From NCBI GenBank assembly GCA_035653595.1, contig DASRBO010000190.1, positions 5,167 through 69,166 on the forward strand: a stretch of 64,000 nucleotides of DNA, given 5' to 3'. Both the position numbers and the translations under genes were made by a program. A model generated the notes under the pieces. That model did no database searches. It was not told where the DNA came from and saw nothing but the letters and a program-made list of their open reading frames with translations. This stretch comes from Acidimicrobiales bacterium (GTDB lineage Bacteria; Actinomycetota; Acidimicrobiia; Acidimicrobiales; JAJPHE01). Shown piece by piece: positions 33,931-56,384 of this stretch (positions are counted from its first letter, which is position 1; each line of letters starts with the position of its first letter).

Positions 33931-35030
33931 TTCGGGGTCTCCGAGTTGAGGGTGGCGGTGTAGTTGAGGCCGACCACGACGGCGGAGTTCTTCTGTGTGT
34001 AGCTGGTCGTGGTATCGATGTGCTGGCTCAACAGCAGCCCGCCGTACTGGGGGGCGATGTCATAGACGTTGGGGTCGCTGGTGCTGGTGGTCGAGCTCAG
34101 CCCGGTCTGGGGGTTGCTGACCTTCTCGTTGGAGATCACCCGGTAGGCGGCGTAGACCTTGCCGCACAGATCGACGTTCTCGACCTTGGAGATTGAGCCC
34201 TGCACCACCATGGTGGTCCCGGTCTTCTGGTCGGTGCCGGCCGAGTTCCAGGAGGTGCCCGGACCCTTCTGGAACGAGACGATGGTGATCGGCGGTTGGG
34301 GCTGGAAGGTGGAGGTGCCGTTCGAGTTCTCCACGACCTGCTTCACGAGCTCGAGGGAGCCGGTGGTGCCGGGGCCCGTCCCCGCCTCCTGATTGGCCCG
34401 GTTGGAGGCGCTGTTGCTCGTCACATTGGCCTGGTAGGTGGTGGTGGTCTGGCTCCCGTCGATGCCGAGGGTCACCACGTCGTAGGAGATCGACCTGGTG
34501 TCGCCGTTCACTCCGACGCTCTCGCCCTGGATCGGGGTGACGGTGTCAGAGGACTGGCCACGGTGGACGTTGTTGATGGTGAACTGGCCCACCGGCGGGA
34601 AGTTGCCGCTGATCGTGATCCCGCCCTCGGTCAGGCTGAACCGGCCCTTGTTGTGGGTGGTGTACACCCCGGATGCGGGAGGATCGGTCACCAGCACCTT
34701 GACGTCCTCGGGGGGGCGGGCGTCGGGGGGTGCCTTCGGGCAGGAGTTGAACGGACCGCGGTTGGCCAACCCGCTGAAGCCCGATGTTCCGGAGGGGTTC
34801 TCCAGCGAGGCGACCTGAGTGAGGAAGGTCGCGTACGACCCCACCGGCTGGGGCAGCAGCTGCACCACCCTGGTGGTCTTGAGGGGCCCGTTGGCGAAGG
34901 CCAGGTTGAGGCCCTCGGTCTTGACGCCGACCTCGAAGCCCCGGCCGCTGTTGAAGCTGCAGGCGCTGGCCCCGAGCCCGAGCACCAGCACCGCCAGCAC
35001 CGACGCGGTCGTCCTGCTCCTCGTCCTCAT
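33927..35030 (-). CDS. Hypothetical Thr/Ser/Asn-rich lipoprotein
   Basis: Trimmed to ATG 35030 (ATGA overlap). The signal peptide plus lipobox reads MRTRSRTTASVLAVLVLGLGASAC. The mature part is beta-rich and T/S/N/G-rich, and visibly lower in GC than its neighbours. Confidence 0.7.
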   Translation of the reverse strand: MRTRSRTTASVLAVLVLGLGASACSFNSGRGFEVGVKTEGLNLAFANGPLKTTRVVQLLPQPVGSYATFLTQVASLENPSGTSGFSGLANRGPFNSCPKAPPDARPPEDVKVLVTDPPASGVYTTHNKGRFSLTEGGITISGNFPPVGQFTINNVHRGQSSDTVTPIQGESVGVNGDTRSISYDVVTLGIDGSQTTTTYQANVTSNSASNRANQEAGTGPGTTGSLELVKQVVENSNGTSTFQPQPPITIVSFQKGPGTSWNSAGTDQKTGTTMVVQGSISKVENVDLCGKVYAAYRVISNEKVSNPQTGLSSTTSTSDPNVYDIAPQYGGLLLSQHIDTTTSYTQKNSAVVVGLNYTATLNSETPN

Positions 35031-37414
35031 TCTGCTCCTCTGCCCGTGCGGCTCAGCCGGCGCAGCACCACCCGGGTCGCCCCCCGCCGTCGGCGGCGCT
35101 GGGTGCCCCCCTGCCGGGCCGGGGCCGGCGCCTTGGGCCGGCGCCGCCAGTAGGCCGGCGGCCCCGGGAGCTCGTCGTCGTACGGCTCCCGCAGGGACGC
35201 CCGGCTCAGGGCGGCCAGCACCCGCGACTGGAGGGGCTGGGCGGCGGCCAGCCGCCGGCGAAGGGAGCGCGAGTAGCGGCGAGCGACCTCGACGTCGTCC
35301 GGGGTCGTGGCCCCGGCCATGTCCCCGTAGAGGGCCCGGGTGACCAGCCAGGCCAGCTCGCCGTGCTCGTCGTCCTCGGCCACGTGGTCGAGGAACTCGA
35401 TGGGCGTGGCGTAGGGGTCCCCGACCCCGAGGTCGGTGGCGGCATCGCGCATCTCGCAGTACTCGGCCAGGACCTCGGCCTCCGGGCTGCGGGCCGCCGC
35501 CCAGCGCCGGCGCCTCAGCCGCCGCCCCAGCCGCCAGGCGGACGGGAGGGCGAGGTAGAGCGCCACCAACAGGAGGATGAGGGGCAGGATCTGCAACAGC
35601 ACCGTGCGGACCTGCTGGTAGAGGGCCTTGAGATCGCGGATCTTCACCGGCACGAAGATGTTGACCGCCACGTTGGCCCCGGGCTGGATGGCCGGGTTGT
35701 ACTTGACGTTCTTGTCGTTGTTGAGGCTGGCCTGCGCCCGCGGCGGAGTGGTCACGATCGGGAGCCACCCGTGGCCGGGGAAGTACACCTCCAGCCACTG
35801 GGCGGCGTCCTTGGGCCTGACGGTGTTGACCCCGTTCACCGGCTCAACGCCGTCGAAGCCGAACCCGATCCTCGATGGGACCCCGGCCCACCGGGCCAGC
35901 AGGGCCTCGGTGGCCACCAGCTCGAACGGGCTGCCCTGATGGTTGCCGGCCAGGATCCTCTGGACCTTGGACGGGGTCACCGGACTCGGGCTCCCTCCGC
36001 CGACGGCGATCTCGACCTGGCTGAGCCTGGCCAACAGGTAGCTCATCCGGTCGAACGGGTTCAGGGGGGCCTCGGACAGCAGCGTCTTCACTGCCGGCGG
36101 GGGGCTCGGGACGTGGAGGTAGTCGGCCTTGTCGAAGCCCCTGGGCAGGCTGCCCGCCCCCCGCAGCTGGTCCGGTGTCGGGTACTTGGGCAGGGTGACC
36201 TGGTAGGTGAAGTTGGCCGGCACCCGGCCCACCGCCATCCGGAAGGTTCCGGTCCTGCCGTCGTAGAGGAGGTTCTGGCCCGGAGCGCTGATCGAGACCG
36301 GACCCACCACCCCAGGCAGCACCGGCGTGGTGCCCAGGTCGCGGGTGGTGAGGCTGACCGTCACGGTGGGGCCGCTGGTCGACCGGACCTCCCCGGAGGC
36401 GGGAACCGGCTTCACGTCCTTGGTCTGGTACGGGGGCAGCAGCCAGTTGGAGCCGTCGTAGACGTCGAGGTCGCCGGTCTTCCAGGGCCCGGTTATCGGG
36501 GCCTTCACCTCGAACAGGTCGGTGTCGGGCACGGTGGCGAGGGAGACCGCTTTGGGCTTCTGGGGTTTGGACTGTGGGTTGTAGATCGGCTTGGGGAAGA
36601 GGAACGAGGTCTGGTTGAGAAGGATCAGGAACACCACCGCCGGCGCCAGCAGAGCCAGCCCCCGCACCGCCCGGCGGAGCTCGAACTGCCTGGTCAGCTG
36701 GGAGGCGCTGCGGCCGTCGCCGCCGAAGAGGACGGCGAGGGCGGCCACCAGGGGGACGAAGGCCAGTAGGCCGGCCAGCAGCTGCTGGTCGCTGGGCTGG
36801 GAGATGGCGGCCAGCAGCAACAGGGGCAGCGGGATGACCAGGGCGGTCTGGGGCCGGTCCAGGGCCGCGCCGACCCAGGCCGAGGCGAAGCCGACGAACA
36901 TCAGGATCATCAGCAGCAGGGGCCGCCAGCCGGCATCGAACGGAACCGGCGGGCGCAGCAGCCGGCCGCTGTGGACGGCGGCGCTGATCTGGCTCATGAA
37001 GCCGCCCGAGGAGGAGCCGGCTCCCACCACCAGGGTGAGGAAGCCCAGCACCACAGCCACCGGCAGCATCCCGAACGAAAGGACGGTGCGGCGAGCGGGA
37101 TAGCGCAGCGACAGCCAGGCCCACGCCACCCCGATCAGAGCGGCGACCGTTCCGAAGAGGCGGGCACCCCAGGATCCGAATATCCCCCCCACGGTGAGGG
37201 CGGTCGCCGCCGAGGCCAGCATGGCGACCAGCAGCGGCCGGAACCGCACTGCCGCCGTCGTCGCCTGCTCCTCTTCCGGGGCGGGCGCCGGGCCGGTCGA
37301 AGGAGCCGGAGCCTCCGGAGCGGCGCCGGGCGCGCCGGAGCGGTCGTCGCCGGCCAGCAGCGACGGGGCGGCGATGGTCTCGACCGGGGCGGCGGGCTCC
37401 AGCGTGTCGGTCAT
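35027..37414 (-). CDS. Transglutaminase-like multi-pass membrane protein (TgpA-like: N-terminal TM bundle, TGase-core-like domain, C-terminal TM + DUF4129-like region); catalytic triad not conserved
   Basis: Trimmed to ATG 37414, which forms an ATGA overlap with the DUF58 stop. About 6 N-terminal TM helices. The core-like segment is GSPFELVATEALLARWAGVPSRIGFGF ... AAQWLEVYFPGHGWLPIVTTP, followed by a late TM helix and an R-rich tail. Confidence 0.8.
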   Translation of the reverse strand: MTDTLEPAAPVETIAAPSLLAGDDRSGAPGAAPEAPAPSTGPAPAPEEEQATTAAVRFRPLLVAMLASAATALTVGGIFGSWGARLFGTVAALIGVAWAWLSLRYPARRTVLSFGMLPVAVVLGFLTLVVGAGSSSGGFMSQISAAVHSGRLLRPPVPFDAGWRPLLLMILMFVGFASAWVGAALDRPQTALVIPLPLLLLAAISQPSDQQLLAGLLAFVPLVAALAVLFGGDGRSASQLTRQFELRRAVRGLALLAPAVVFLILLNQTSFLFPKPIYNPQSKPQKPKAVSLATVPDTDLFEVKAPITGPWKTGDLDVYDGSNWLLPPYQTKDVKPVPASGEVRSTSGPTVTVSLTTRDLGTTPVLPGVVGPVSISAPGQNLLYDGRTGTFRMAVGRVPANFTYQVTLPKYPTPDQLRGAGSLPRGFDKADYLHVPSPPPAVKTLLSEAPLNPFDRMSYLLARLSQVEIAVGGGSPSPVTPSKVQRILAGNHQGSPFELVATEALLARWAGVPSRIGFGFDGVEPVNGVNTVRPKDAAQWLEVYFPGHGWLPIVTTPPRAQASLNNDKNVKYNPAIQPGANVAVNIFVPVKIRDLKALYQQVRTVLLQILPLILLLVALYLALPSAWRLGRRLRRRRWAAARSPEAEVLAEYCEMRDAATDLGVGDPYATPIEFLDHVAEDDEHGELAWLVTRALYGDMAGATTPDDVEVARRYSRSLRRRLAAAQPLQSRVLAALSRASLREPYDDELPGPPAYWRRRPKAPAPARQGGTQRRRRRGATRVVLRRLSRTGRGAE

Positions 37415-38706
37415 GAGCTCATCCCGGCTCCGACCTGGTGGCGGAAGGCGACCGACAGCGGCACCCGGGGCCGCAGCTCGACGACCTGGCATCCGAGGGC
37501 AGAGGCCCGACCGAGGGTGTCCACCGACTCCTCGCCATAGAGCAGGGCGGCGACCAGGACGGAGAGGCCTCGGCCGAGCAGCTGGTCGAGGGCCCCCGCC
37601 GCCTTGGCGTCCAAGCGGGGTGTGATCAGCACCAGGTGCTGGTTGCGGGCCACGCTGTTGGCCACCCGCTGGATGGCGACATGGAGGGGGGCGTTGCGCA
37701 CCCGCTCGATCCGGGCGAGCGCGTCGAGGTACTCGATGCGGGCCTTCGCCGTGCGCAGGGGCGGCAGGATGGCGGCCTCGCTGCCCTCAAGCGTCACCGA
37801 GAAGCCGTCCCGGAGATGGCGCACCCCCACCGAGGCGGCCGCCTTCACCCCCGCCTCGAACGAGGCGCTCACCTCACCTGCGGTGTGGTTGGCGGCGTCC
37901 TGGTCCAGGAGGATGGTGACGCGGTCGGTGATCCCCTGCTCGGCTTCGCGCACCAGCAACTGGCCGGTGCGGGCGTAGGCCCGCCACACGATGCGGCGGA
38001 TGTCGTCGCCCGGGTTGTACTGGCGCATGCCGTAGAACTCGAGGCCCTGGGGCCATGGACGGGAGACGGGCGGGCGGATGGGCGGGTCCTCGAACATCCG
38101 GGTGAGCGGGCGGTCCTCCACCTGCTCCACGCTGGGGTGCACCAGCAGCTCGACCGGCTCGACCAGGACCGCCTCCCGGCGGGTCAGCCCGAACGGGTCT
38201 CCCCAGCGCACGACCAGGGGGCCGAGCCGGTAGGCGCCCCGCCGTCGGCACGTCAGCTTGTAGGCGAAGCTCACTCCGTCGCCGGATTCGGCCGTGGCCA
38301 CCGGCACCTGAACGGCGTCGCCGAGGGCGTCGGGGACCCGCTCTTCGAGGATGAAGGTCGACACCCGCCGGGCGGCGGACAGCTCGACAGACATGGCGAC
38401 CGTCTCGCCCTCGGCCAGGCGGGGCCGTGACTCGGACCGCCTGCCCTCGACCGGCAGGGGCCGGCGTCCGATGACGTAGGACGCCACCAGGACCGCCAGC
38501 AGTCCGTAGGACAGGAGGTAGAGGGGCCGCCCTCCGACCGTCCGGCCGAGGAGCCATGCGACCACGACCAGCACCACCAGGGCCATGCCCGACCAGGTGA
38601 GCCCGGTCACCCGCTCCACCGCCGCCTGGGCGCGCCGGACCGCACCGCCACGCGCCGGGGGGCGGGCGACGGTGGTGACAGGTGCGGTGACGGCGGTCGC
38701 GGTCAT
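37411..38706 (-). CDS. DUF58 (VWA-like) domain protein, MoxR partner
   Basis: 431 aa. Two N-terminal TM helices and the DUF58 core ...YNPGDDIRRIVWRAYARTGQLLVREAEQ...VTILLDQ. ATGA overlap with the moxR-like stop. Confidence 0.85.
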   Translation of the reverse strand: MTATAVTAPVTTVARPPARGGAVRRAQAAVERVTGLTWSGMALVVLVVVAWLLGRTVGGRPLYLLSYGLLAVLVASYVIGRRPLPVEGRRSESRPRLAEGETVAMSVELSAARRVSTFILEERVPDALGDAVQVPVATAESGDGVSFAYKLTCRRRGAYRLGPLVVRWGDPFGLTRREAVLVEPVELLVHPSVEQVEDRPLTRMFEDPPIRPPVSRPWPQGLEFYGMRQYNPGDDIRRIVWRAYARTGQLLVREAEQGITDRVTILLDQDAANHTAGEVSASFEAGVKAAASVGVRHLRDGFSVTLEGSEAAILPPLRTAKARIEYLDALARIERVRNAPLHVAIQRVANSVARNQHLVLITPRLDAKAAGALDQLLGRGLSVLVAALLYGEESVDTLGRASALGCQVVELRPRVPLSVAFRHQVGAGMSS

Positions 38707-39737
38707 CGGGCCGCAGCAGCCACCGGTCGGCTCGAGGAGCTGCGCCGGCGGGTCGGCCGGGCGGGGGCACCGTCCTGGTCGGCGCTGGTGGCGCTCACCA
38801 TCGGCGGCTTGATGCGCCCGACGACCCGCTCGAGGATGTCGGCGACTCCTTCCCCCCGGAGCACGGCGTCGGGGGTCATCATCACCCGGTGACCGAGCAC
38901 CGGGGTGAGCAGGGCCTTGATGTCCTCCGGATAGACCTGCTGGCGTCCGTCGGCCGCCGCCATGACCCTCGATGCCTTGGCCAGGGCTATCGAGGCCCTC
39001 GGCCCGGCACCCATGAGCAGGGCGGGCTCCTGGCGGGTGGCCGCGGTGATCTCCAGCAGGTAGGTCTCGACCGCCGTCGACAGCTTGACCTCGGAGGCGA
39101 GGCTCACCATCTCCAGCACCTCCTTGGGGGTCAGGACCGGCTCGAGGTCCTCCACCTGGAGGTGGGTCGCGTTGCCCCGGATGACCGCCCGCTCGGCCTC
39201 GAGGTCGGGGTAGCCCATGGTGAGCTTGAAAAGGAAGCGGTCCAGCTGCGCCTCGGGCAGGGGGAAGGTTCCGGCCAGCTCCACCGGGTTCTGGGTGGCC
39301 AGAACGAGGAAGGGCTGGGGCAGCTGGTGGGTCGTGCCGTCCACGCTGACGCTGCGCTCGGCCATGGCCTCAAGCAGGGCCGACTGGGTCTTCGGTGTGG
39401 CCCGGTTGATCTCGTCGACCAGGACGATGTTGGCGAACACCGGACCGGGCCGGAAGACGAACTTCATGGTCTTGGTCTCGATCACCGAGGACCCGGTGAT
39501 GTCGCCGGGGAGCATGTCGGGGGTGCACTGCACCCGGGCCATCTGGGCGTGCATCGACGAACCCAGTGCCCGCGCCAGCACCGACTTGCCCACGCCGGGC
39601 ACGTCCTCGAAGAGGATGTGCCCTCCGGCACAGATGGCCACCAGCGACAGCCGGACGACGTCGTCCTTGCCGTGGATCACCGTGTTGACGTTCGAGACGA
39701 ACTGCTCGAACAGCTTCCTGAACCTGGTTACGTCCAT
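38703..39737 (-). CDS. MoxR-family AAA+ ATPase
   Basis: 344 aa. Walker A is GVPGVGKS and Walker B is LVDEINRA. The segment ...LATQNPVELAGTFPLPEAQLDRF... is characteristic of MoxR/AAA_3. Confidence 0.92.
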   Translation of the reverse strand: MDVTRFRKLFEQFVSNVNTVIHGKDDVVRLSLVAICAGGHILFEDVPGVGKSVLARALGSSMHAQMARVQCTPDMLPGDITGSSVIETKTMKFVFRPGPVFANIVLVDEINRATPKTQSALLEAMAERSVSVDGTTHQLPQPFLVLATQNPVELAGTFPLPEAQLDRFLFKLTMGYPDLEAERAVIRGNATHLQVEDLEPVLTPKEVLEMVSLASEVKLSTAVETYLLEITAATRQEPALLMGAGPRASIALAKASRVMAAADGRQQVYPEDIKALLTPVLGHRVMMTPDAVLRGEGVADILERVVGRIKPPMVSATSADQDGAPARPTRRRSSSSRPVAAAAR

Positions 39738-39798: not shown

Positions 39799-42700
39799 CT
39801 ACTGCCTCACCGAGCGGTTGATGACCTCCTCCGAGGTCCCCAGGTATGAGGCCACCACCTGGGGATGCTCGAGGACCTCGTCGGCCGGTCCCCGCACCAC
39901 GAAGGTGCCCTGGTCCAGGGCGATGAGCTCAGGTGCCACCGACACCAGCAGCGGCATGTCGTGCTCGATCACCAGCATGCTGCAGCCCGTGTCCTGCTGG
40001 ATCCGTCGCAGGAGCGGCCCCAGCTCCTCAGCCTCCCGCTGGGCGATGCCGGAGGACGGCTCGTCGAGCAGGAGGACCTTCGGTTCGGTCGCCAGCACGC
40101 AGGCCATGTCCACCAGGCGGCGCTGGCCGGTCGACAGCTCACGCACGAACTTGTTGCGCAGCGCCTGAAGGCCGAACATCTCCACCAGGCGCTCGATGCG
40201 CCTCTCCAGCCGCGCCTCGCCTCGGGTGACCGTCGGGATGCGCAGCGCCGCCAGGGTGGCGCTCTTGGTCGGCAGCTGCCGGTCGAGGGCGACGGCCAGG
40301 TTCTCGGACACGGTGAGGGCGGGGAAGAGCCGGGCGTCCTGGAAGGACCGCAGAAGCCCCAGGGCTGAGCGCTGGTCCGGACCGAACGAGGTGAGGTCCT
40401 GGCCCTGCATGACCACTGAGCCCGAATCGGGCGTGATGAACCCGCTGATCAGGTCGAACAGCGTCGTCTTGCCGGCGCCGTTGGGACCGATTATCCCCAG
40501 GATCTGTCCGTGGTCGAGGGTGAAGCTCACGTCGTTGACGGCGTTGACGCCTCCGAAGCGCTTGGTCATGCCGCGCACCTCGAGCGCCGGCCCTTCCTCC
40601 TCCGGAGCGGTCAGCGGAGCGGAGGATGACATCCGCACCCGGCCCGATCCCCGCAGGTACACCGAGCGGAGGATGTCCGAACGGGCCATGAGCTCGGCCG
40701 TCGGCCCGCTGAAGCGAACCTCGCCCTTCTCCATGAAAACGGCCCGGTCGGCCACGGTCAGGGCGACGTTCACCGACTGCTCGACCAGGATGACGGTGGT
40801 CCCCTGCTGGTGGATGGCCCTTACCGCCTCGATGAGCCGGGTGACCAGCACGGGTGAAAGGCCGAGGGACAGCTCGTCGATCATCAGCAACCGGGGCCTG
40901 GACAGGAAGGCCTGGGCCAGGGCCACCATCTGCTGCTCGCCTCCGGACAGGTTGCCGGCGGCGTTGTCGAGGTGGTCCACCAGCTCGGGGAACAGGTCGA
41001 GCACGGAGCGAGTCCGTACAGTGGCTTCGTCGGGGTGGACCCATCCGGCCAGGCGTAGGTTCTCGGCCACGGTCAGGGTGGGGAACACCCCCTTGCCCCC
41101 AGGCATCATCACGATCCCCCTGGCGGCGTGCTCGTGGGCCGGCAGGTGGGTGATGTCCTCCCCGTCGCAGAAGATGGCGCCGTTGGCCGCCTCGGTCAGG
41201 CCGCTGATCGCCCGGAGGAGGGTGGACTTGCCCGCCCCGTTGGTCCCGAGCAGGGCGATGATCTCGCCCTCGTCCACCTCGAAGTCCACGTTGAACAGGA
41301 CCTGGACCGGCCCGTAGGCCACGTCGAGGTCGCGGGCGACGAGCAGCTTGGCCTGACCGGCGGCCTTCGCATCGCGGGAGACCTTGGCCGCCATGGCGGC
41401 GGCGGCGGCGGCCCGGATGTCGCCGGCGACGCTGCTGGCGGCCGAGGCGATGATGATCGAGCCGATGGCGAAGACCGGGGCCAGCGAGCCGATACCCACC
41501 CGGATGCCGTGGTGGTCGCCCATGTAGCCGGCGAAGAAGAAGAACAGGTAGCCGGGCAGGATCGCCAGCGCTCCCAGCGACAGGGCCAGGGCCCGGGCCC
41601 GGGCCGGCACGACCAGCGAGAGCAGGGCCTGCGACGCCGGCGCCAGGATCGTCGCCATGAAGTTGAGCAGGCAGGACAGCCCCACCGCCACGAGCAGGTT
41701 GGGTGCGGCGGCGATCCCGAGGATGGCGAGGGCCGAGGCGACGCCCATCCCGCCGGCGTAGGCGATGACCCGGGCCGGCCTCTCCTTGAGAAAGGCGTTG
41801 CCGAGCACTCCCCCGACGAGAAGGCCGAGCAGGGCGAAGGGCTGCTGCACCGCCAGGAAGACCCCGCGCAGTCCCGGGCCGACGTTGAAGACCTGGTCGT
41901 AGTAGAGGGAGGTGAGGGTGGCGAGCCCGAGGAGGCCGCCGACCAGGAAGGGCAGGCTCCAGATGATCCGGCGCAGTGTCCGCACGCTCCACGCCACCCG
42001 CACCGACTCGCCGAACGACGGCGGCCGCTCCTCCTCGAGAGCCTCCTCCTCGGTCGCCCCCATCGCCCGACGCTCCTGCTCGCCCCGGACCGGCTCCCTC
42101 AGGACGAAGAAGCAGACCCAGGTCAGCAGCAGGGCGGGAACGGCCAGGATGATGAAGGTGACCTGCCACAGCGTTATGGCGGCGATGGCGCCGGCGACCA
42201 GCGGTCCCACGGCGCTGCCCGCCTCGTAGGCCATCTGACGGAAGGTGAACACGCCCGGTCGCACCGCTGGCGGGTACCAGTCCGACAGCAGCGACTGGTG
42301 CACGGCGTCGGTCGTCCGGTTCAGGCCGGCGCCGGCCCGGGCGATGGCGAAGAGCACCACGGCGGGGACGATGCCGCTGGCGAGGGCGAAGACCCCCAGG
42401 CAGAGGGAACCGAGGCCGGCCAGCCAGGTCCTCCGCCGGCGGTCGGCCAGGTAGCCGACCGGCACCGTCAGGAGGATGGTCGCCAGGGTGGCCAGTCCCA
42501 CCAGGACGGTGATGCCCGTCAGGTCGAGGCCGAAGAAGTCCTTGACCTCGGGAGCCAGGGCGGCGAAGGCCTGCTTGTCGAACTGGTCGAGGAAGGTGAT
42601 GCCGGCCAGGACCAGCAGCGGGGTGCCTGGGGTTCCGCCGGTGGCCACCGACGGCCGCAGGTTGTCGGCGAAGGTGAACACCCAGCCCCGCTGGCGGCGC

Positions 42701-42903
42701 TGGCGGGGGATGGGGTCTCCGTCCACCACGGCCGGGGCGGACCCTCCGTCGCCTTGTGGCTCCAGCCGCAGGGGGGCCAGATCCATGACCAGCTCACCGT
42801 CGACGGGCGGGGACTCCGGAGAGGGATCCGTCGCCGGCACGTACGCCTCGGTCGTGGCAAGCCGCTTGCGGCCCCCGTTGCCCGAGCCCTGGGTCCGAGC
42901 CAT
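39799..42903 (-). CDS. Triple fusion: MFS-type 12-TM domain + LivF-like ABC ATPase + LivG-like ABC ATPase (HAAT family)
   Basis: Single uninterrupted ORF. ATG 42903 (TGATG overlap with the permease stop) is preferred, and GTG 42915 is possible. The MFS motif A is VGYLADRRRRTW. The first NBD is LLGTNGAGKSTLL...LSGGEQQM...LLMIDELSLGL (LivF-like). The second NBD is IIGPNGAGKTTLF...LSTGQRRL...LLLDEPSSGI (LivG-like). Confidence 0.85.
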   Translation of the reverse strand: MARTQGSGNGGRKRLATTEAYVPATDPSPESPPVDGELVMDLAPLRLEPQGDGGSAPAVVDGDPIPRQRRQRGWVFTFADNLRPSVATGGTPGTPLLVLAGITFLDQFDKQAFAALAPEVKDFFGLDLTGITVLVGLATLATILLTVPVGYLADRRRRTWLAGLGSLCLGVFALASGIVPAVVLFAIARAGAGLNRTTDAVHQSLLSDWYPPAVRPGVFTFRQMAYEAGSAVGPLVAGAIAAITLWQVTFIILAVPALLLTWVCFFVLREPVRGEQERRAMGATEEEALEEERPPSFGESVRVAWSVRTLRRIIWSLPFLVGGLLGLATLTSLYYDQVFNVGPGLRGVFLAVQQPFALLGLLVGGVLGNAFLKERPARVIAYAGGMGVASALAILGIAAAPNLLVAVGLSCLLNFMATILAPASQALLSLVVPARARALALSLGALAILPGYLFFFFAGYMGDHHGIRVGIGSLAPVFAIGSIIIASAASSVAGDIRAAAAAAMAAKVSRDAKAAGQAKLLVARDLDVAYGPVQVLFNVDFEVDEGEIIALLGTNGAGKSTLLRAISGLTEAANGAIFCDGEDITHLPAHEHAARGIVMMPGGKGVFPTLTVAENLRLAGWVHPDEATVRTRSVLDLFPELVDHLDNAAGNLSGGEQQMVALAQAFLSRPRLLMIDELSLGLSPVLVTRLIEAVRAIHQQGTTVILVEQSVNVALTVADRAVFMEKGEVRFSGPTAELMARSDILRSVYLRGSGRVRMSSSAPLTAPEEEGPALEVRGMTKRFGGVNAVNDVSFTLDHGQILGIIGPNGAGKTTLFDLISGFITPDSGSVVMQGQDLTSFGPDQRSALGLLRSFQDARLFPALTVSENLAVALDRQLPTKSATLAALRIPTVTRGEARLERRIERLVEMFGLQALRNKFVRELSTGQRRLVDMACVLATEPKVLLLDEPSSGIAQREAEELGPLLRRIQQDTGCSMLVIEHDMPLLVSVAPELIALDQGTFVVRGPADEVLEHPQVVASYLGTSEEVINRSVRQ

Positions 42904-45086
42904 CAGAAGGTCCACCTCCGCCCGGCCTGGCTGCCGCCCGCCACCCGGATGCGCGACGGGAGCCGGTAGTGCACCGGCACCGGCTCACCGTCGTCGGGAC
43001 GGGGCGCCACCGGGGCCCGCTCGCCCCTCCCCTCCACCAGCAGGCGGTCGGGCAGGAGGCTGGGCACCCAGATGCGCCGGCGGATGGCCACCCGCCGCAG
43101 CACGGCGTCGCGGGCGGCGTAGGCCAGCGCCCCCAGACCACCGGGGAAGAACAGCAGCACCAGCAGCACCCCGACGGCGCTCGCCAGGAGCTGGGCCACC
43201 GCCCCGTGGAGGACGAAGCTCACTACGGCGAAGTACAGCGCCCCCAGCAGGGCGCCCTGGATGGATCCGAGCCCGCCGATGACGGCGGCCAGAAAGATGT
43301 TGACGCTCTGGTCCGGGCCGAAGGCGTCCGGGCTGACCTGGTGCTCCTGGACCGCCAGGAGCACCCCGGCGAAGGCGGCAATGAAGCCTGATAGGGCGAA
43401 GGTGGCCAGCCGGGTGCGCACCAGGTTCACGCCCAGGGCCTGGGCGGTCCGCTCGTTCTCCCTCATGGCGATCAGGACCCGGCCGGTCCGGGTCCGCCGC
43501 AGCCCGATGGCGGCATACCAGACCCCGATCAAGGCGGCCAGGCAGAGGTAGTAGAAGACACGCTCGTCGGTGGTCTTGATGGAGAAAAGAGAGGGCCGGT
43601 TCACCGATGGCGCGATGAGGTTGCCGAAGTAGGTCCGGTTCACCCCGACCGTCGCCATGGCCACGGCGAAGGCGAGGGTGGTGACCGCCAGGTAGAGCCC
43701 GCGCACCCGCAGCGATGCGAAGCCGAGCACCACCGCCACGGCCGCCCCCGACAAGGAGCCGAGCAGTAGAGCGACGAGGAAGGGCAGTCCGGCCCGCCCG
43801 TAGAGAGCGCCGCCGAAGACCGCGCCCACTGCGGCGAGAGCCCATTGGCCCAGGCTGACCTGGCCCCCCCAGCCGGTGAGCACGACCAGCGAGACGATGA
43901 CCATGCCGTCGATCAGGAAGCTGGTCGCCAGGCTGGTCTGGCTCGGTGACAGGACGAAGGGTATCCCCACGATCACCACGCCCAGCAGCCCCGTCAGGCG
44001 GCGCACGCCCGAGCGGACGGTGGGCAGGTGGGCCAGCTCCGGCGGGATGGGCCTGACCTCCTCGGTCGCCGCCCACGAGCTGACCGCCCCCTCGTCCACC
44101 CGCATCAGGCGGCGCCGGCGAAGGAGGAGCGCCACCAGGATCAGGCCCAGGAGGGCAACGTCGACGATGGCGCTCTGGGAGAAGTCGAAGAACACGACCT
44201 CCTGGAACACGGCGATGCCCAGGGACGCCACCACCGCCATCGGCAGGTTGTCCATGCCGGCCACGACAGCGGCGGCCAGCCCGATCAGCAGCTGCTCGGT
44301 GCCCAGGCCGGAGCTGCCGACCGATCCGCCCTGATAGCCGACTATGGGCACGACCAGGATGGCGGCGAGACCGGAGAGGCCGGCGCCGAGGGTCCACACC
44401 AGGGTCGACAGCGTGCGGGTGTTGATGCCCAGGAGCGAGGCCCGGTCGGCGTTCTCCGCCGCGCCGCGCACGGCGATGCCTCGCCTGCTCAGACGGAAGA
44501 AGGCGATCATCCCCCCCAGGGCGGCCACGGTGACCAGGACGAGGAAGACCTGGTCGCCGGTGAAGACCACCGGGAAGGCCTGCCAGCGCAGGTGGCTGAA
44601 CGGCGTGCGGGGCTGGCCGGGCTGGAAGTTGTGGTCGCCCACCAGTCCGGGCACCGCCCCGGCCAGGGCCGCCAGGAGCTGGCCGATGCCGATGGTGACG
44701 ACCAGCACTATGAGCCGGGCGGACCCGAAGAAGCGTCGGATGAACAGGAACTCGACGACGGTCCCCGCCACCGCCGAAGCGACGAGGGCGATCGGCAGAG
44801 CCGCCCAGTACGGGAAGCTCAGATAGGAGACCATCTCGTAGAAGAGAGCGGCGCCGATGAGCCCGAAGCTGGCATGGGCGAAGTTGATGACCCGGCTGGC
44901 CCGGTAGATGAGGACCAGGCCCACGGCGAAGAGGGCGTTGGCGCAGCCGAATACGCAGGAGTAGGCGAGCACCGACAGGTCGCTGTGGCCGGTGCCGGCA
45001 CGGAGCGCGACGGCGCCGACGACGAAGATGCCGACGAGGCCGGCGGTGTAGAGGAGGCTCGAGCGGGCCCGGGCGAGGGTGGTCAC
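42903..45086 (-). CDS. Fused LivH-LivM type branched-chain-amino-acid-family ABC permease
   Basis: 727 aa with a GTG start. It has two BPD_transp_2-like halves: the LivH-like ...GLVLIYRASRVINFAHASFG... and the LivM-like ...LTGWGGQVSLGQWALAAVGA.... Confidence 0.85.
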   Translation of the reverse strand: MTTLARARSSLLYTAGLVGIFVVGAVALRAGTGHSDLSVLAYSCVFGCANALFAVGLVLIYRASRVINFAHASFGLIGAALFYEMVSYLSFPYWAALPIALVASAVAGTVVEFLFIRRFFGSARLIVLVVTIGIGQLLAALAGAVPGLVGDHNFQPGQPRTPFSHLRWQAFPVVFTGDQVFLVLVTVAALGGMIAFFRLSRRGIAVRGAAENADRASLLGINTRTLSTLVWTLGAGLSGLAAILVVPIVGYQGGSVGSSGLGTEQLLIGLAAAVVAGMDNLPMAVVASLGIAVFQEVVFFDFSQSAIVDVALLGLILVALLLRRRRLMRVDEGAVSSWAATEEVRPIPPELAHLPTVRSGVRRLTGLLGVVIVGIPFVLSPSQTSLATSFLIDGMVIVSLVVLTGWGGQVSLGQWALAAVGAVFGGALYGRAGLPFLVALLLGSLSGAAVAVVLGFASLRVRGLYLAVTTLAFAVAMATVGVNRTYFGNLIAPSVNRPSLFSIKTTDERVFYYLCLAALIGVWYAAIGLRRTRTGRVLIAMRENERTAQALGVNLVRTRLATFALSGFIAAFAGVLLAVQEHQVSPDAFGPDQSVNIFLAAVIGGLGSIQGALLGALYFAVVSFVLHGAVAQLLASAVGVLLVLLFFPGGLGALAYAARDAVLRRVAIRRRIWVPSLLPDRLLVEGRGERAPVAPRPDDGEPVPVHYRLPSRIRVAGGSQAGRRWTF

Positions 45087-45087
45087 C

Positions 45088-46098
45088 TCAGGCCACCCCG
45101 TGCACCAGAGCGCCGAGGGAGCTGACGCTGATGACCTGATCCGGCCCGGGCGCGGCCACCGAGCGCGACGGAACCGTGCCGGTCAGGTCGACGATCACGA
45201 TCTGGAGGGCGCGGGTGTCCTGGTCCAGCCTCTGGATGAACGACACGGCAAAGCCGCCCAGGTGACCGTGCGGGTCGAGCCACACCTCCCCGGGGAAAAC
45301 GGTGGCGGTGACGGCATTGGCCTGCAACACCCGGGCCACGACCTGCTTGGAGGTGTCGGCCATGCCCTTCTCGGCCTTGTCCAGATCGAAGTTCACCCGG
45401 TAGAACCGGTAGCCGGCCGACTCCGCCGTCGTGGTACGGGACTCGGAAGTCGGCTTGACGCTTCCCGTCAGGGTTCCCGCCACCAGCCGGAGGAGCAGGG
45501 CCGGGTTGAAGGCGAAGCTGCCCGCCGCCTGATCCTGCGCCTGGCGGGGAAGGCTGGCGAAGTCGAGGCTCACCCAGGGACGGGAGGTGCCCAGTCCCCC
45601 CGAGGCAGCCCCTCCGGCCTGGGCGCCCGACCCGCCGAGGCCGCTGATCCCCCCCGCCAGGGCCCCGAGGCTGGCGCTCGCCGGGGCTGACAGGACCATC
45701 AGGTTGGACACCCCGCCGCCGGCGGCGTTGAGCAGGCTCTGCACGTCGGACGAGCCAGGCCCGGGCCGGCGCTCGTACATGCGGTTGGGGGTGAAGATCA
45801 GAGCCGGCGGTTGACCCGCCGCCGTCGACACCTGGGCCTCCCCGCGGCCCGGGTACACGACCATGGCCAGCGGCCCGGCCTTCGCCGCCCTTATTCGCTG
45901 GGGCCCCGGGGCGGTTGGGCGGGGCCCGGGCAGCGGAACCACCTGTACGGAGAGGGTGCCGGCGACCCCCCCGGCGGACAGGGCCGACTGGGCGGCGCCG
46001 ATGATCCGGTCGGCCGTGGCCTGCTTGGCCGCCACCCCGCAGGCCGACGCGCCGAGGGTTGTGGCGGCGAGCGCCAGGAAGACCAGGGCGCGCCTCAC
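45088..46098 (-). CDS. Hypothetical lipoprotein embedded in ABC operon
   Basis: GTG 46098 forms a GTGA overlap with the SBP stop. The lipobox reads MRRALVFLALAATTLGASAC. There is a Gly/Ala/Ser-rich middle region. No family recognised. Confidence 0.65.
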   Translation of the reverse strand: MRRALVFLALAATTLGASACGVAAKQATADRIIGAAQSALSAGGVAGTLSVQVVPLPGPRPTAPGPQRIRAAKAGPLAMVVYPGRGEAQVSTAAGQPPALIFTPNRMYERRPGPGSSDVQSLLNAAGGGVSNLMVLSAPASASLGALAGGISGLGGSGAQAGGAASGGLGTSRPWVSLDFASLPRQAQDQAAGSFAFNPALLLRLVAGTLTGSVKPTSESRTTTAESAGYRFYRVNFDLDKAEKGMADTSKQVVARVLQANAVTATVFPGEVWLDPHGHLGGFAVSFIQRLDQDTRALQIVIVDLTGTVPSRSVAAPGPDQVISVSSLGALVHGVA

Positions 46099-47789
46099 GA
46101 GCCGGGCGCCATGGTTATGCCGGAGTGGAATAGGCCCGGATCGTCACCGGAAGGCCAACCTCCGAACGTGTATCGCTGGCCGTTGTTGAGGTACCGGTAG
46201 GTGCCAGGCTGGCCGTCCGAGCCGAGCGAGTTGGGATCCCACCAGATCTCCGCCGCCCACAGGGGGAAGGTGTGGTTGTCGTCCGCGTAGCCGCCCGCCA
46301 TGTGCCATGGGGGGTCTGGTGGCAGCTTCGGCTGGTTGATCAGGGCCTGTCTGAACTTCTGTGGGGTCAGGTGGGGCCCGGCCTCCTGGATCCCTCCGAA
46401 CAGTTGGACCATGTCGCCCCACATGTAGTTGCACATACCGCTGTCAGGGTCGTTGTTGGGGTCGATCTGGTGGTACGCCTGGTAGCACTCGGTCTCCTCG
46501 TCGGGACGGGGGACCTCGTAGAACGAGTAGCCGAAGGCGTGGACCCATTCGTAGCCGTTGTAGTCACGCCCGATGTGGCCGGTATCCACGCCGCCGAAGC
46601 CGGGCAGGTACCACTCCGGGTAGTAGTTGTTGCTGTAGGCGGCCTCGGTGAAGATGGCCGCGCTGAGCAGGTCGCCGAGGTAGAAGACCGTCGTGACTCC
46701 GGCCGCTCGCAGCTGGACCACGTCCGTGCTGAGCCCCTGGGTCCCCGAGCCGCTACCGGTCAGGTCGTAGGTGACGACCTTGGCCGGCGTGACCCCGCAC
46801 TCCTGGCGGAGCAGCGAGGTGGCGTAGCCGGACATGTTCCCGTACTCGGGCAGGTCGTAGACGATGAGCCCGACCTTCCGGGGCGCCTTGTAGTTGAACG
46901 TGGGGTCGTTGGTGTACGTGGGGGGCTTGCCGGCCAGCTTCTTGCAGTAGTACTCGACCCCCATCTTGATGGTGGACGTGGCCGAGGGCGTGAAGCTCCA
47001 GATGTAGGGGTCCTTCGACTGGAAGTAGCTCTCGGGGACCTGGGCCAGGGTGTAGGCGATGATCCCGTCATGGGCGAGCTCGTCCAGCTCGTCGGCGTTG
47101 GTCTCCTCGATCGAGGCGAAGCAGTGGTAGGTGTTCTTAGCGGCGTCGGCGCGGGCGTAGGCGTTGGCCGTCGAGTTGGACCCGCTGGGATTCGACACGT
47201 AGTACCACTGCATCTTCCGCCCGTAGAACTGGTAGCGGGAGTTGAAGTAGTTCATGAGCACCGTGTAGGTGCGGGCGACCCCACCCTCGCTGGACGTCTC
47301 CTGCTGAGGGATCGGGCCCCCGCTGCTGTCGGCCCCGGTGAGGTTCATCAGGTAGCAGATGTTGATGGTGTTGGCCGTCACGCCCGGGCTGGTGGCGCCT
47401 CCGTTGTTGCCCGTGAAGGCAGGTGCACAGGGCGGGGCGTAGACGGAGGCGATTTGTCGGGGAGGGTTGCCCACGCCGTACGGGCAGGCGCTGTACTGGT
47501 TCCCTTGCTGCTGGGGCGGGGGCGGCAGGGTGCTCGGGGTGGACCCACCGGGGCCGCTGCCGGCCTGGGTGCCGCCGAAGGTCCCGCTGTCAGCAGCGTG
47601 GGCCCCGGCGTAGAGGGTCTGGTTCTTGTTGGGCGGGGCGTTGGGCGAGAAGGCCCCGCTCTGGTCCGGCTGCTGGAGCGGCGGGCGCAGAGCGCTCGGC
47701 AGGAGTATCACCGCCAGAAGGAGCGCCGCCCCGATGTAGCCGAAAGGCAGGAGCTGATCCAGCCGCGTCCGCCTCCCAGCCGATGGCAC
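46095..47789 (-). CDS. Oversized type-I periplasmic-binding-fold protein (Liv-type SBP-like), N-terminal TM anchor
   Basis: 564 aa. GTG 47789 is preceded by GGGGGAGGGG. It has one N-terminal TM helix and a P/Q/G linker, then a PBP1-like pattern (RKVGLIVYDLPEYG...VVQLRAAGVTTVFYLGD...YYPEW). It is the first gene of the ABC operon and a paralogue of 54245-56197. Confidence 0.7.
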   Translation of the reverse strand: MPSAGRRTRLDQLLPFGYIGAALLLAVILLPSALRPPLQQPDQSGAFSPNAPPNKNQTLYAGAHAADSGTFGGTQAGSGPGGSTPSTLPPPPQQQGNQYSACPYGVGNPPRQIASVYAPPCAPAFTGNNGGATSPGVTANTINICYLMNLTGADSSGGPIPQQETSSEGGVARTYTVLMNYFNSRYQFYGRKMQWYYVSNPSGSNSTANAYARADAAKNTYHCFASIEETNADELDELAHDGIIAYTLAQVPESYFQSKDPYIWSFTPSATSTIKMGVEYYCKKLAGKPPTYTNDPTFNYKAPRKVGLIVYDLPEYGNMSGYATSLLRQECGVTPAKVVTYDLTGSGSGTQGLSTDVVQLRAAGVTTVFYLGDLLSAAIFTEAAYSNNYYPEWYLPGFGGVDTGHIGRDYNGYEWVHAFGYSFYEVPRPDEETECYQAYHQIDPNNDPDSGMCNYMWGDMVQLFGGIQEAGPHLTPQKFRQALINQPKLPPDPPWHMAGGYADDNHTFPLWAAEIWWDPNSLGSDGQPGTYRYLNNGQRYTFGGWPSGDDPGLFHSGITMAPGS

Positions 47790-47854: not shown

Positions 47855-47906
47855 AGCCAACTCCTGCCTATTGTCTGCCCGCCCGGCGAAGCTCGGAGGT
47901 AGCCCG

Positions 47907-49175
47907 GTGAAGATCACCCAGATGACCGCCCTGGACGTCCGCTTTCCCATGCCGCCCGGCGCCGGCAGCGACTCGCTGCACGTGGATCCCCTCTACAGCT
48001 TCGCCACCTGCAAGCTCCGGACCGACGACGGCCTCGAGGGGACGGGCATCACCTTCACCCTGGGAAGGGGCAACGAGGTGGTCACCGCCGCCATCCGGGC
48101 CTTCTGGCCCTTCGTCCGCGGCCACGACGTGGCCGAGCTCGCCGCCGACCTCGGGGCCCGTTGGCGGGCGTGGGCAAACGAGAGCCAACTGCGGTGGCTG
48201 GGGCCCCACAAAGGGGCGATCCACCTGGGCCTGGCCGCCGTCACCGGCGCCATCGTCGATCTGTGGGCCAGGTCGGAGGGCAAGCCCCTCTGGCGCCTGC
48301 TGCTCGACCTCAGCCCTGAGCAGCTCGTGGCTCTGGCCGACTTCTCGACCATATCGGACGTAATCGACGAGGCCGGGGCCCTCGAACTGCTGCGCGAGCG
48401 GCGTCTGCCGGAGGCTGAGATCGCCGCCCAGCTGGAGCGGGGCTACCCCGGCTACGACACCTCCGTCGGCTGGCTCGGCTACTCGCGGGACCAGCTGGTG
48501 ACAAACGCCCTCTCCTCGGTGGGACGGGGCTTCCGGGCGGTCAAGCTGAAGGTGGGCTCCCCCGACATCGCCACCGATGCCGACCGCGTAGCCGCGGTGC
48601 GGGAGGCGGTCGGACCGGAGATATTGGTCATGGTGGACGCCAACCAGTGTTGGAGCGTGCCCCGCGCCATCGAGGCCGGCCGGGCCCTGGCCTCGAGTGA
48701 TGTCTTCTGGTTCGAGGAGCCCGTGCACCCCGACGACGTGCTCGGCTACCGCGACGTGGCCACTGCCCTGGCTCCCATGCGCATAGCCGGAGGGGAGCAC
48801 GTTCCCAACCAGGTGGTGTTCAAGAACTTCATCCGGGCCGGGGCCATTCAGGTCGCCCAGCCCGACGTCGTCCGGCTGGGCGGGCTGCCGGAGTTCCTCG
48901 GCGTCGCCCTCATGGCCGCCGAAGCGGGCATTCCGGTGCTCCCCCACGCCGGTGAGACCAGCCAGATCCACCAGCACCTGATCCTTTTCACCCGTTGCGT
49001 CCTCGGCCTTCCGGAACTTCCGCTCGAGACCATTCCGCACCTGGCCGAGCACTTCGTGGATCCGGTCCAGATCGTGAAGGGGCGCTACCGCCCTCCAACC
49101 GTGCCCGGCATAGGCGCCGCCCTGCAGCCGGACAGCCTGGCGAGGCACGCCGCCACGACGGAGGTCCTGACCTAG
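47907..49175 (+). CDS. Enolase-superfamily acid-sugar dehydratase, L-fuconate dehydratase (FucD/ENOSF1)-like
   Basis: GTG 47907 with GGAGG 7 nt upstream, so the TTG 47871 start in the track is rejected. Colinear FucD-like blocks: ALDVRFP...GSDSLHVDPLYS, GLEGTGITFTLGRGNEV, SQLRWLGPHKG, GYPGYDTSVGWLGYS, KLKVG, MVDANQCW, WFEEP, GGEH, QPDVVRLGG. Confidence 0.85.
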   Translation: MKITQMTALDVRFPMPPGAGSDSLHVDPLYSFATCKLRTDDGLEGTGITFTLGRGNEVVTAAIRAFWPFVRGHDVAELAADLGARWRAWANESQLRWLGPHKGAIHLGLAAVTGAIVDLWARSEGKPLWRLLLDLSPEQLVALADFSTISDVIDEAGALELLRERRLPEAEIAAQLERGYPGYDTSVGWLGYSRDQLVTNALSSVGRGFRAVKLKVGSPDIATDADRVAAVREAVGPEILVMVDANQCWSVPRAIEAGRALASSDVFWFEEPVHPDDVLGYRDVATALAPMRIAGGEHVPNQVVFKNFIRAGAIQVAQPDVVRLGGLPEFLGVALMAAEAGIPVLPHAGETSQIHQHLILFTRCVLGLPELPLETIPHLAEHFVDPVQIVKGRYRPPTVPGIGAALQPDSLARHAATTEVLT

Positions 49176-56197: not shown

Positions 56198-56384
56198 TCA
56201 CAACCCCCTGAGGCGGGCCGAACCCCCGAGGCCGACCCCTGATGAGGGGTCAGTATGGCCCACTGGCCGGGATTGCACACATCACCGGGGGCCCCAATAG
56301 GCTCCCAGGCGGCTGGGGCCGCCCAATTCGGAGCGGCCGGGGAGGACCTTTTCCTTCTCTAGCCAATTCCTTTTAGCCACGGGT
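56198..56384. promoter_or_regulatory. Divergent intergenic region between SBP2 and permease2
   Basis: At 187 bp this is the longest non-coding gap in the window. The AT-richest patch is 56346-56378 (ccttttccttctctagccaattccttttagcc). CCAAT(T/A) occurs 3 times (56294, 56323, 56363). There is a small hairpin acccct-gatg-aggggt at 56235-56250. Confidence 0.3.

Follow-up and report, generated by a model that had tools for sequence, protein, structure and literature searches.

A Spinster-family MFS domain fused to the LivF- and LivG-type ATPases of a HAAT-type importer in Acidimicrobiales

A transporter gene of composite structure has been analyzed in a 64,000-nt stretch of DNA from an Acidimicrobiales bacterium (assembly GCA_035653595.1, contig DASRBO010000190.1, positions 5,167 to 69,166 of the forward strand), referred to below as the window. 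By sequence comparison we show that this gene, located on the minus strand at 39799..42903, encodes the predicted ATPase subunit of a complete binding-protein-dependent importer of the HAAT type, and that the LivF part of this subunit carries a full 12-helix major facilitator superfamily (MFS) domain, assigned to the Spinster family. MFS and ATP-binding cassette (ABC) proteins form the two largest transporter superfamilies and are the textbook cases of secondary and primary active transport, respectively. As for the function of the composite protein, we tentatively favor the reading (probability about 0.4) that the MFS domain is a working carrier coupled to the ATPase, and would constitute a coordinated second substrate path beside ATP-driven import. 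The importer formed by this gene and its neighbors is called system A here, and all coordinates are collected in Table 1.

The MFS-LivF-LivG gene and its distribution

The initial annotation of the window described the gene as a single polypeptide of about 1035 codons and did not give its strand; the gene comprises 1034 codons on the minus strand. The longest version of the open reading frame (ORF), 39799..42915, starts with GTG and encodes 1038 amino acids (aa). The likely translation start is the ATG at 42903, which shares a TGATG overlap with the stop codon of the upstream permease gene and yields a 1034-aa product identical to database protein P0001. The GC content of third codon positions (GC3) lies between 0.87 and 0.98 in all 100-codon windows of the ORF, which is therefore one coding frame throughout.

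The N-terminal part indeed scores as an MFS domain, with the Pfam MFS_1 profile (positions 2–336 of 347) matching residues 104–449 of the 1038-aa version at E 2.7e-36. Two further stretches of the protein match ABC_tran (E 5.2e-66), and the C-terminus has a weak, sub-threshold match to BCA_ABC_TP_C (19.3 bits vs. the Pfam cut-off of 25.5). The best NCBIfam models are UrtE/LivF for residues 522–752 and LivG/UrtD for residues 773–1023, in agreement with the proposed order of the two nucleotide-binding domains (NBDs), LivF-type NBD1 followed by LivG-type NBD2; the NCBIfam equivalog cut-offs for LivF, LivG, LivH, and LivM are reached by none of the system A proteins. Motif A and every NBD motif quoted in the initial annotation have been located in the 1034-aa protein, whose numbering is used hereafter: VGYLADRRRRTW at residue 149, GTNGAGKST at 553, LSGGEQQM at 652, and MIDELSLG at 674, and, in NBD2, GPNGAGKTT at 806, LSTGQRRL at 923, and LLDEPSSG at 945. 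Column conservation is 0.52–0.56 in the transmembrane (TM) bundles of the MFS domain, 0.685 in its central loop, and 0.71–0.76 in the NBDs.

Scanning of one genome per species produced 79 loci of the MFS-NBD1-NBD2 type, mostly from metagenome-assembled genomes (MAGs) of Acidimicrobiia, with several copies per genome and with one cultured isolate, Actinospongicola halichondriae (L060). The frame is uninterrupted in all 79 loci, so that neither a frameshift nor a stop codon splitting the ORF, a possibility raised initially, is observed. One might still suppose that an MFS gene had become fused with livF and livG, themselves separate genes, through an assembly error or a frameshift, the more so as in the second MFS-bearing system of the window (system B, see below) LivG is separate, with a 4-bp GTGA overlap, and a single base would fuse or split F and G. 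The continuity of the frame in genomes and MAGs alike, the cultured A. halichondriae included, together with the uniform GC3 along the ORF and the presence of the same architecture in about 60 protein clusters, reduces the probability of such an artefact to almost nothing, and we reject it for the family as a whole.

These protein clusters, formed at 90% identity and obtained in a protein search, have the MFS+ABC+ABC architecture with identity down to 44%, and their members are named in databases just “MFS transporter” or “branched-chain amino acid transport ATP-binding protein.” Fused LivH-LivM is encoded directly upstream, on the strand of the fusion gene, in at least 71 of the 79 loci, the rest being contig ends or tandem copies, and a homologue of the 564-aa putative binding protein of system A is found in the flanks (up to 10 kb on each side) of 62 loci. 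Paralogues are 31–47% identical to the window system in the MFS domain, 24–37% in the substrate-binding protein (SBP), and 50–73% in the NBDs. Across Actinomycetota, the fusion is shown to be ancient and maintained by selection.

This architecture, common among Actinomycetota, is present also in MAGs of Dormibacterota, and it occurs in three layouts. The first is the MFS-F-G chain of system A, and the second, MFS-F with a separate G, is found in system B and in locus L083. System B (54245–61992) is a paralogous MFS-bearing HAAT system overlooked in the initial annotation; its identity to system A (tblastn) is 33% for the MFS domain, 61% for NBD1, 59% for NBD2, 44% for LivH-LivM, and 25% for the SBP, and its LivHM, MFS-LivF, and LivG genes overlap one into the next at ATGA and GTGA. 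The third layout, observed in about 70 loci of the class Actinomycetes and of Dormibacterota (L080/L081, L118–L182), consists of MFS-LivF (about 740–770 aa) followed, with a 4-bp overlap, by a LivH-LivM-LivG fusion (about 955–975 aa). An example is Kribbella capetownensis (L136, 5836–11081), and the cultured genera with this layout include Kribbella, Nonomuraea, Actinomadura, Actinoallomurus, and Actinocrispum. Whatever the layout, the MFS domain precedes the LivF-type NBD in the chain, and in no case is it joined to LivG or the permease. A metagenome protein of 1227 aa (P0062) has LivH-LivM, LivF, and LivG in one chain and no MFS domain; as it joins the permease to LivF, the N-terminus of LivF can take either a permease or an MFS domain.

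The initial annotation considered that the architecture might turn out to be common and already characterised. Common it is, within Actinomycetota, and as to characterisation, no description of an MFS fusion with ABC or HAAT ATPases, functional or other, has been found in full-text searches of the literature, and a curated InterPro or TCDB entry may exist.

The Spinster-family domain and its free-standing relatives

The AlphaFold2 (AF2) model of residues 70–525, based on an alignment of 62 sequences, has the 12-helix MFS fold, with a predicted local distance difference test score (pLDDT) of 94.3 and a predicted TM-score (pTM) of 0.92. Comparison of this model with the Protein Data Bank (PDB) by Foldseek produced 472 matches at E ≤ 0.001, and all 50 of the listed top matches are MFS transporters. 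Ranks one to five are occupied by the bacterial Spinster homologue HnSpns (6e9c, E 7.8e-12), which comes first, and then by the human proteins SPNS2 and SPNS1, with TM-scores of about 0.72–0.79; the sequence identity of the domain to the solved Spns structures is 15–18%. A profile built from the MFS domain and seven free-standing relatives (see below) matches HnSpns (6e8j) at E 1.6e-27, the next being SPNS1 at E 3.2e-18, and the motif DYYPP..R following TM4 is common to the MFS domain and the Spns proteins. By both sequence and fold, the MFS domain is a member of the Spinster (Spns) family.

Residue conservation has been counted over 56 fused sequences, and the roles of HnSpns residues are as described in PMC9440201. 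Motif A reads G150-Y-L-A-D154-R155-R-R-R158, with D154 and R158 present in all sequences and R155 in 54. In HnSpns, the charge relay Asp87-Arg91-Asp142 closes the cytoplasmic side (PMC9440201), and the corresponding residues D154, R158, and D208 are invariant (56/56). Asp41 of HnSpns corresponds to D109, retained in 50 sequences, and Arg122 of TM4, to R189, retained in 54, while the substrate-binding Arg42 corresponds to position 110, with Arg or Lys in 38. The acidic “master switch” of protonation in TM4, Glu129 in HnSpns and Glu126 in MsSpns (PMC9440201; bioRxiv 10.64898/2026.05.09.724020), is replaced: position 196, equivalent to Glu129, is occupied by R (20 of 56), K (20), Q (8), S (2), L (2), and N (1), and none of these six commonest residues is acidic. 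Additional acidic residues are observed in TM1, namely D106 (49/56) and E107 (35/56). As the relay and the buried charges are kept and the Glu129 switch is replaced, the domain appears to retain the conformational machinery of Spinster proteins, with a probably different chemistry of energy coupling.

Two simple explanations of the domain have been rejected. It is not a degenerate remnant of an MFS transporter, given the pLDDT of its model and the invariance of the functional motifs, and it does not substitute for a missing half of the permease, as the LivH-LivM permease is complete and lies upstream in every locus whose flank has been sequenced.

When the MFS domain was used as query in an exhaustive HMMER search, 191 representatives were retrieved at E ≤ 1e-30, and among the best 150 of these, 39 have two NBDs, 25 have one (some being truncated), and 86 have none (many being fragments). 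Seven full-length free-standing relatives, with identity of 33–36%, align with the MFS domain end to end; they carry the same conserved central cytoplasmic loop and the same ADI motif after TM12, and their residues at position 196 are K, K, I, L, K, Q, and K. No HAAT genes are seen near free-standing relatives in the five contigs looked up. The existence of such end-to-end relatives in non-HAAT settings suggests that the fused domain descends from autonomous carriers or gave rise to them.

The comparison with free-standing relatives also bears on two ideas about the link between the MFS domain and the ATPases. The central loop, more conserved than the TM bundles, was considered as a docking site for the NBDs and rejected, since free-standing relatives share both the loop and the ADI motif; these are therefore family traits and provide no evidence of NBD contact. 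Likewise, the idea that loss of the Spns Glu is a sign of ATP replacing protons is weakened, as free-standing relatives lack this Glu too.

The neighborhoods of two free-standing genes are as follows. One of them (P0257, L112, 2414–3826) has as neighbors the gene of a MarR regulator and that of a divergent ABC exporter, and the other (P0258, L113, 1815–3224) adjoins a gene for a patatin-like phospholipase. The latter neighbor may be relevant to the lysolipid substrates of eukaryotic Spinster proteins.

The connector, the ATPases, and the possible role of the MFS domain

In the model of the full-length protein (pLDDT 85.2, pTM 0.72), TM12 is a single helix of residues 467–514 leading into the first strand of NBD1, and the connector has pLDDT of 84–92. 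D495, located after TM12, is invariant. In 83 proteins 58 aa separate it from the Gly of Walker A, and in six more the spacing is 59 aa, as it is in system B. A connector of fixed length and predicted helical structure suggests that the two parts are coupled mechanically or allosterically, and not just loosely tethered.

The modelled tandem of NBDs superposes on double NBDs that form a single chain in Mycobacterium tuberculosis, DppD (8wdb_D, TM-score 0.68) and OppD (8j5q_D). The fusion of both ATPases is therefore not unusual in Actinobacteria, and it is the addition of the MFS domain that is.

One peculiarity of the LivF-type NBD concerns the Q-loop, where canonical LivF carries Glu. The canonical LivF-like NBD of P0079 has PEGR at this position, whereas the system A protein has Gly (G602, 41099–41101, within PGGK), and PGG[KR] is found in 83 of 84 MFS-fused proteins. 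This may reflect an asymmetric or degenerate ATP site, or else altered coupling to the transmembrane domains (TMDs). As a signature of the MFS fusion the Gly has been rejected, as it is present also in the MFS-less protein P0062.

Based on these observations, we propose that the MFS domain would still be a working alternating-access module, because the charge relay and the charges buried in TM1 and TM4 are kept, and because the family includes free-standing carriers. It would lie next to LivH-LivM in the membrane, on the side of LivF, with its last helix running at fixed length into NBD1, and given this arrangement the opening and closing of the LivF-LivG dimer would be coupled, mechanically or allosterically, to the transition of the MFS domain between the inward-open and closed states. 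The result would be a second substrate path coordinated one-to-one with the ATP-driven import cycle, e.g., export or exchange of a compound that is related to the imported substrate and is anionic or amphipathic. The pattern of divergence agrees with this proposal: the MFS and SBP parts differ most among paralogues, as expected if the MFS domain is substrate-specific.

Several points weigh against this carrier role. The argument from divergence is weakened by the general tendency of TM domains to diverge faster than NBDs. With Arg, Lys, or Gln at the position of the acidic switch, the domain cannot work exactly like the characterised Spns proteins. The conserved central loop and the ADI motif occur in free-standing relatives as well. 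Finally, the importer has all its parts even without the MFS domain, so that the gene content fits an accessory role other than transport equally well.

One such role is that of a sensor, or “transceptor”: the MFS domain would bind a ligand in its cavity and turn LivF-LivG on or off via the rigid TM12-NBD1 helix, with no net transport through it, similarly to trans-inhibition or to regulatory domains on the ATPases of other importers. The completeness of the importer without the MFS domain, the connector of fixed length and predicted helical structure, and the loss of the acidic coupling switch of Spns all fit this explanation. Moreover, accessory domains on the ATPases of ABC importers (MalK, MetN, ModC, OpuAA) are typically regulatory; these known regulatory domains, however, are soluble and C-terminal, and we know of no precedent for a 12-TM N-terminal sensor on an importer NBD. 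The invariance of the alternating-access motifs over deep divergence and the existence of free-standing relatives without any ATPase also speak against a sensor, and we consider it a serious but rather unlikely alternative to the carrier role.

A more radical explanation is an ATP-powered or ATP-gated MFS domain, whose alternating access would be driven or gated by the LivF-LivG dimer, with the motor shared with LivH-LivM. TM12 is predicted to continue directly into NBD1, resembling the link between the last TM helix and the NBD that is typical of TMD-NBD half-transporters. The invariant length of the connector, the replacement of the proton-switch Glu by Arg, Lys, or Gln, and the attachment of the MFS domain only to LivF, and never to LivG or the permease, point in the same direction. 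On the other hand, free-standing relatives, which have no NBD, show the same change from Glu to Lys, and the loss is therefore independent of the ATPase; the additional acidic residues of TM1, D106 and E107, could still couple protons. Further, the grooves of both NBDs are expected to hold the coupling helices of LivH and LivM, and no element resembling a coupling helix and specific to the fused forms has been found in comparison with the free-standing relatives. Given these objections, we regard ATP-driven MFS transport as improbable.

The MFS domain might also be a passive anchor or scaffold that neither transports nor senses, and merely holds the ATPases at the membrane or docks the TM-anchored SBP or LivH-LivM. 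It is the least conserved of the folded parts of the protein, less so than the NBDs, and the conserved TM anchor of the binding proteins could need a partner. However, the invariant Asp and Arg of the relay and the buried charges of TM1 and TM4 would not persist in a mere anchor, and the fold is kept (pLDDT 94). Other HAAT and Actinobacterial importers, including those with the DppD and OppD double NBDs of M. tuberculosis, need no anchor, and P0062 joins LivHM directly to F-G without an MFS domain. The canonical fold, the invariant relay, the conserved buried charges, and the free-standing relatives together argue against an inert tether, and we hold this possibility to be very doubtful. The initial annotation had offered a second translocation path, a sensor, and a membrane tether as options: the weight is now shifted against the tether, and the second path is the option that we tentatively prefer.

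Genomic context and relation to known systems

The fused LivH-LivM permease encoded next to the ATPase gene is complete, as initially proposed, with UrtB/LivH models matching residues 45–328 and UrtC/LivM models matching residues 372–653; in a search of PDB sequences with this protein nothing was found at E ≤ 0.01. Further upstream is the gene of the 564-aa protein, in which the binding protein mentioned in the initial annotation is to be sought. This protein itself has no match in Pfam, NCBIfam, or PDB sequences (PDB giving only chance-level hits, E > 1), and the assignment is weakly supported, at the level of the family: 10 of 36 homologues match Peripla_BP_6 (best E 1.4e-13), and LivJ-like PDB chains are weak matches of the family profile (E 0.015). 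Members of the family (P0121–P0240, about 560 aa) are mostly annotated as hypothetical. They have an N-terminal TM anchor, a conserved LPSALRPP motif, a low-complexity spacer rich in Pro, Ser, Thr, and Gly, and the motif C..GNPPRQ..SVYAPPC..F.G.NGGAT with two invariant Cys. We consider the 564-aa protein a probable, very divergent LivJ-type binding protein.

The 336-aa ORF located between this gene and LivH-LivM has no Pfam or NCBIfam match and is kept only in the closest orthologous loci (45% identity in L001, about 31–32% in L003, L004, L006, and L008). In L080 and L082 this slot holds unrelated small ORFs, of 179 and 375 aa, respectively. In system B, the LivG protein has a tail of about 185 aa (61435–61992), basic and of low complexity, rich in Ser, Thr, Ala, Lys, Arg, and Pro, and without a domain match.

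Table 1. Features of the two MFS-bearing HAAT-type systems of the window and of adjacent genes (fusion residues in 1034-aa numbering).
Feature	Position	Strand	Evidence or remark
System A fusion, residues 1–69: disordered unconserved N-terminus	42697..42903	-	pLDDT <50; mean column conservation 0.14 over residues 1–85
System A fusion, residues 70–490: 12-TM Spinster-family MFS domain	41434..42696	-	Pfam MFS_1, AF2, Foldseek, family profile
System A fusion, residues 491–519: conserved helical TM12-NBD1 connector (D495-I-R-A-A...)	41347..41433	-	AF2 model, invariant D495
System A fusion, residues 520–749: LivF/UrtE-type NBD1	40657..41346	-	NCBIfam; Walker A 553, signature 652, Walker B 674
System A fusion, residues 750–772: disordered inter-NBD linker (about 20 residues)	40588..40656	-	pLDDT 33–38; conservation 0.43 over residues 746–772
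System A fusion, residues 773–1034 and stop: LivG/UrtD-type NBD2	39799..40587	-	NCBIfam LivG/UrtD models, residues 773–1023
Fused LivH-LivM (UrtB-UrtC-like) permease, 727 aa	42903..45086	-	two BPD_transp_2 stretches, E 3.8e-57
336-aa ORF, signal/lipobox-like N-terminus	45088..46098	-	GC3 0.91; between binding-protein gene and LivH-LivM
Extracytoplasmic 564-aa protein with membrane anchor, probably a very divergent SBP of LivJ type	46095..47789	-	family-level Peripla_BP_6 matches
Enolase-superfamily gene (MR_MLE, acid-sugar-dehydratase-like)	47871-49175	+	divergent from binding-protein gene
MoxR AAA+ ATPase (AAA_3)	38703-39737	-	Pfam
DUF58 protein	37411-38706	-	Pfam
TgpA-like transglutaminase membrane protein	35027-37492	-	Pfam
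System B SBP-like gene	54245-56197	-	Pfam/ORF/tblastn
System B LivH-LivM	56385-58562	+	Pfam/ORF/tblastn
System B MFS-LivF, single NBD	58559-60658	+	Pfam/ORF/tblastn
System B separate LivG	60655-61992	+	Pfam/ORF/tblastn

The initial annotation took the fusion gene to be the last of its operon, which is doubtful. Downstream, on the same strand and after a gap of 61 bp, follow the genes of MoxR, DUF58, and TgpA, and no terminator-like site between the fusion gene and MoxR was found in a promoter and terminator scan, itself uninformative in DNA of 70% GC. The fusion gene is probably not the last of its unit. In the neighbor-joining tree built on MFS+NBD1 of the 79 loci and the window, MoxR-DUF58-TgpA genes adjoin, besides system A, all 27 loci of two adjacent clades (L001–L012, L014, L016, L022, L033–L035, L041, L047, L050, L054, L056–L058, L072, L076), and none of the 52 other loci. 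They are downstream of the transporter in 18 loci and upstream in 9, and in the Dormibacteria contig L082 the transporter genes lie between DUF58-TgpA and MoxR. As the linkage is clade-wide, does not depend on orientation, and crosses phyla, it suggests a functional tie between the clade of the window's transporter and the MoxR-DUF58-TgpA module.

On the other side of system A, the enolase-superfamily gene recurs only in L054 and L080 (4568–5740 in the latter), L080 being a distant variant system with a similar arrangement. The search for substrate hints among neighbors led nowhere, as this gene is rare, and a sulfatase, amidohydrolases, and a glycosidase form no consistent theme.

Compared to known HAAT importers (LivJ/K-LivHMGF, UrtABCDE; TC 3.A.1.4), the system is alike in having two BPD_transp_2 domains, a LivG/UrtD-type NBD with its weak BCA_ABC_TP_C match, a LivF/UrtE-type NBD, and a probable binding protein, divergent and Peripla_BP_6-like. 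It is unlike them in the fusion of LivH with LivM and of the NBDs in the order F then G, in the TM anchor of the binding protein and its divergence beyond the reach of the Pfam model, in the Q-loop Gly of LivF instead of the canonical Glu, in not reaching the equivalog cut-offs, and, above all, in the 12-TM MFS domain borne by LivF, as the HAAT ATPases are separate soluble subunits without membrane domains. By domain content, the system may be assigned to the HAAT family minus the feature of separate soluble ATPases.

With the Spinster proteins (HnSpns 6e8j/6e9c, MsSpns, SPNS1/SPNS2; TC 2.A.1.49), whose hallmark is proton-coupled transport, the substrates being amphipathic or lipidic, the MFS domain shares the 12-TM fold, the Asp of TM1 with the basic residue next to it, the Arg of TM4, and the motif-A relay, and it differs from them in the covalent fusion to ABC ATPases, in the lack of the acidic switch, and in the extra TM1 residues D106 and E107. 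DppD (DppABCD) and OppD (OppABCD) of M. tuberculosis are similar in having two NBDs in one chain as part of a binding-protein-dependent importer, but belong to the peptide/opine/nickel family rather than HAAT and have no membrane domain. A conceptual analogy, and nothing more, is provided by the ArsA-ArsB arsenite pump and KdpFABC, in which an ATPase is tied physically to a protein of a different superfamily, that of a secondary carrier or a channel. There the carrier or channel subunit is a separate polypeptide and the sole translocation path, while the present system has a complete ABC permease as well and a covalently fused carrier, and there is no sequence relationship.

The names presently given to these proteins imply that censuses of transporters in Acidimicrobiia miscount both the MFS and the ABC classes. 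The strict linkage within one clade is a new lead on the poorly understood MoxR-DUF58-TgpA module. If the ATP-driven MFS explanation were true, one ABC motor would power two translocators, the HAAT permease and an MFS-fold carrier, and this would be the first primary-active MFS transporter and a new hybrid class of transporters across Actinomycetota. More generally, the fixed connector, the several paralogues per genome, and the wide spread imply selected functional coupling of two transport mechanisms. The fused proteins thus offer a natural system for asking whether an ABC ATPase gates or drives an MFS fold, or whether an MFS domain regulates an ABC motor, and cultured genera (Kribbella, Nonomuraea, Actinomadura, Actinospongicola) make such experiments feasible.

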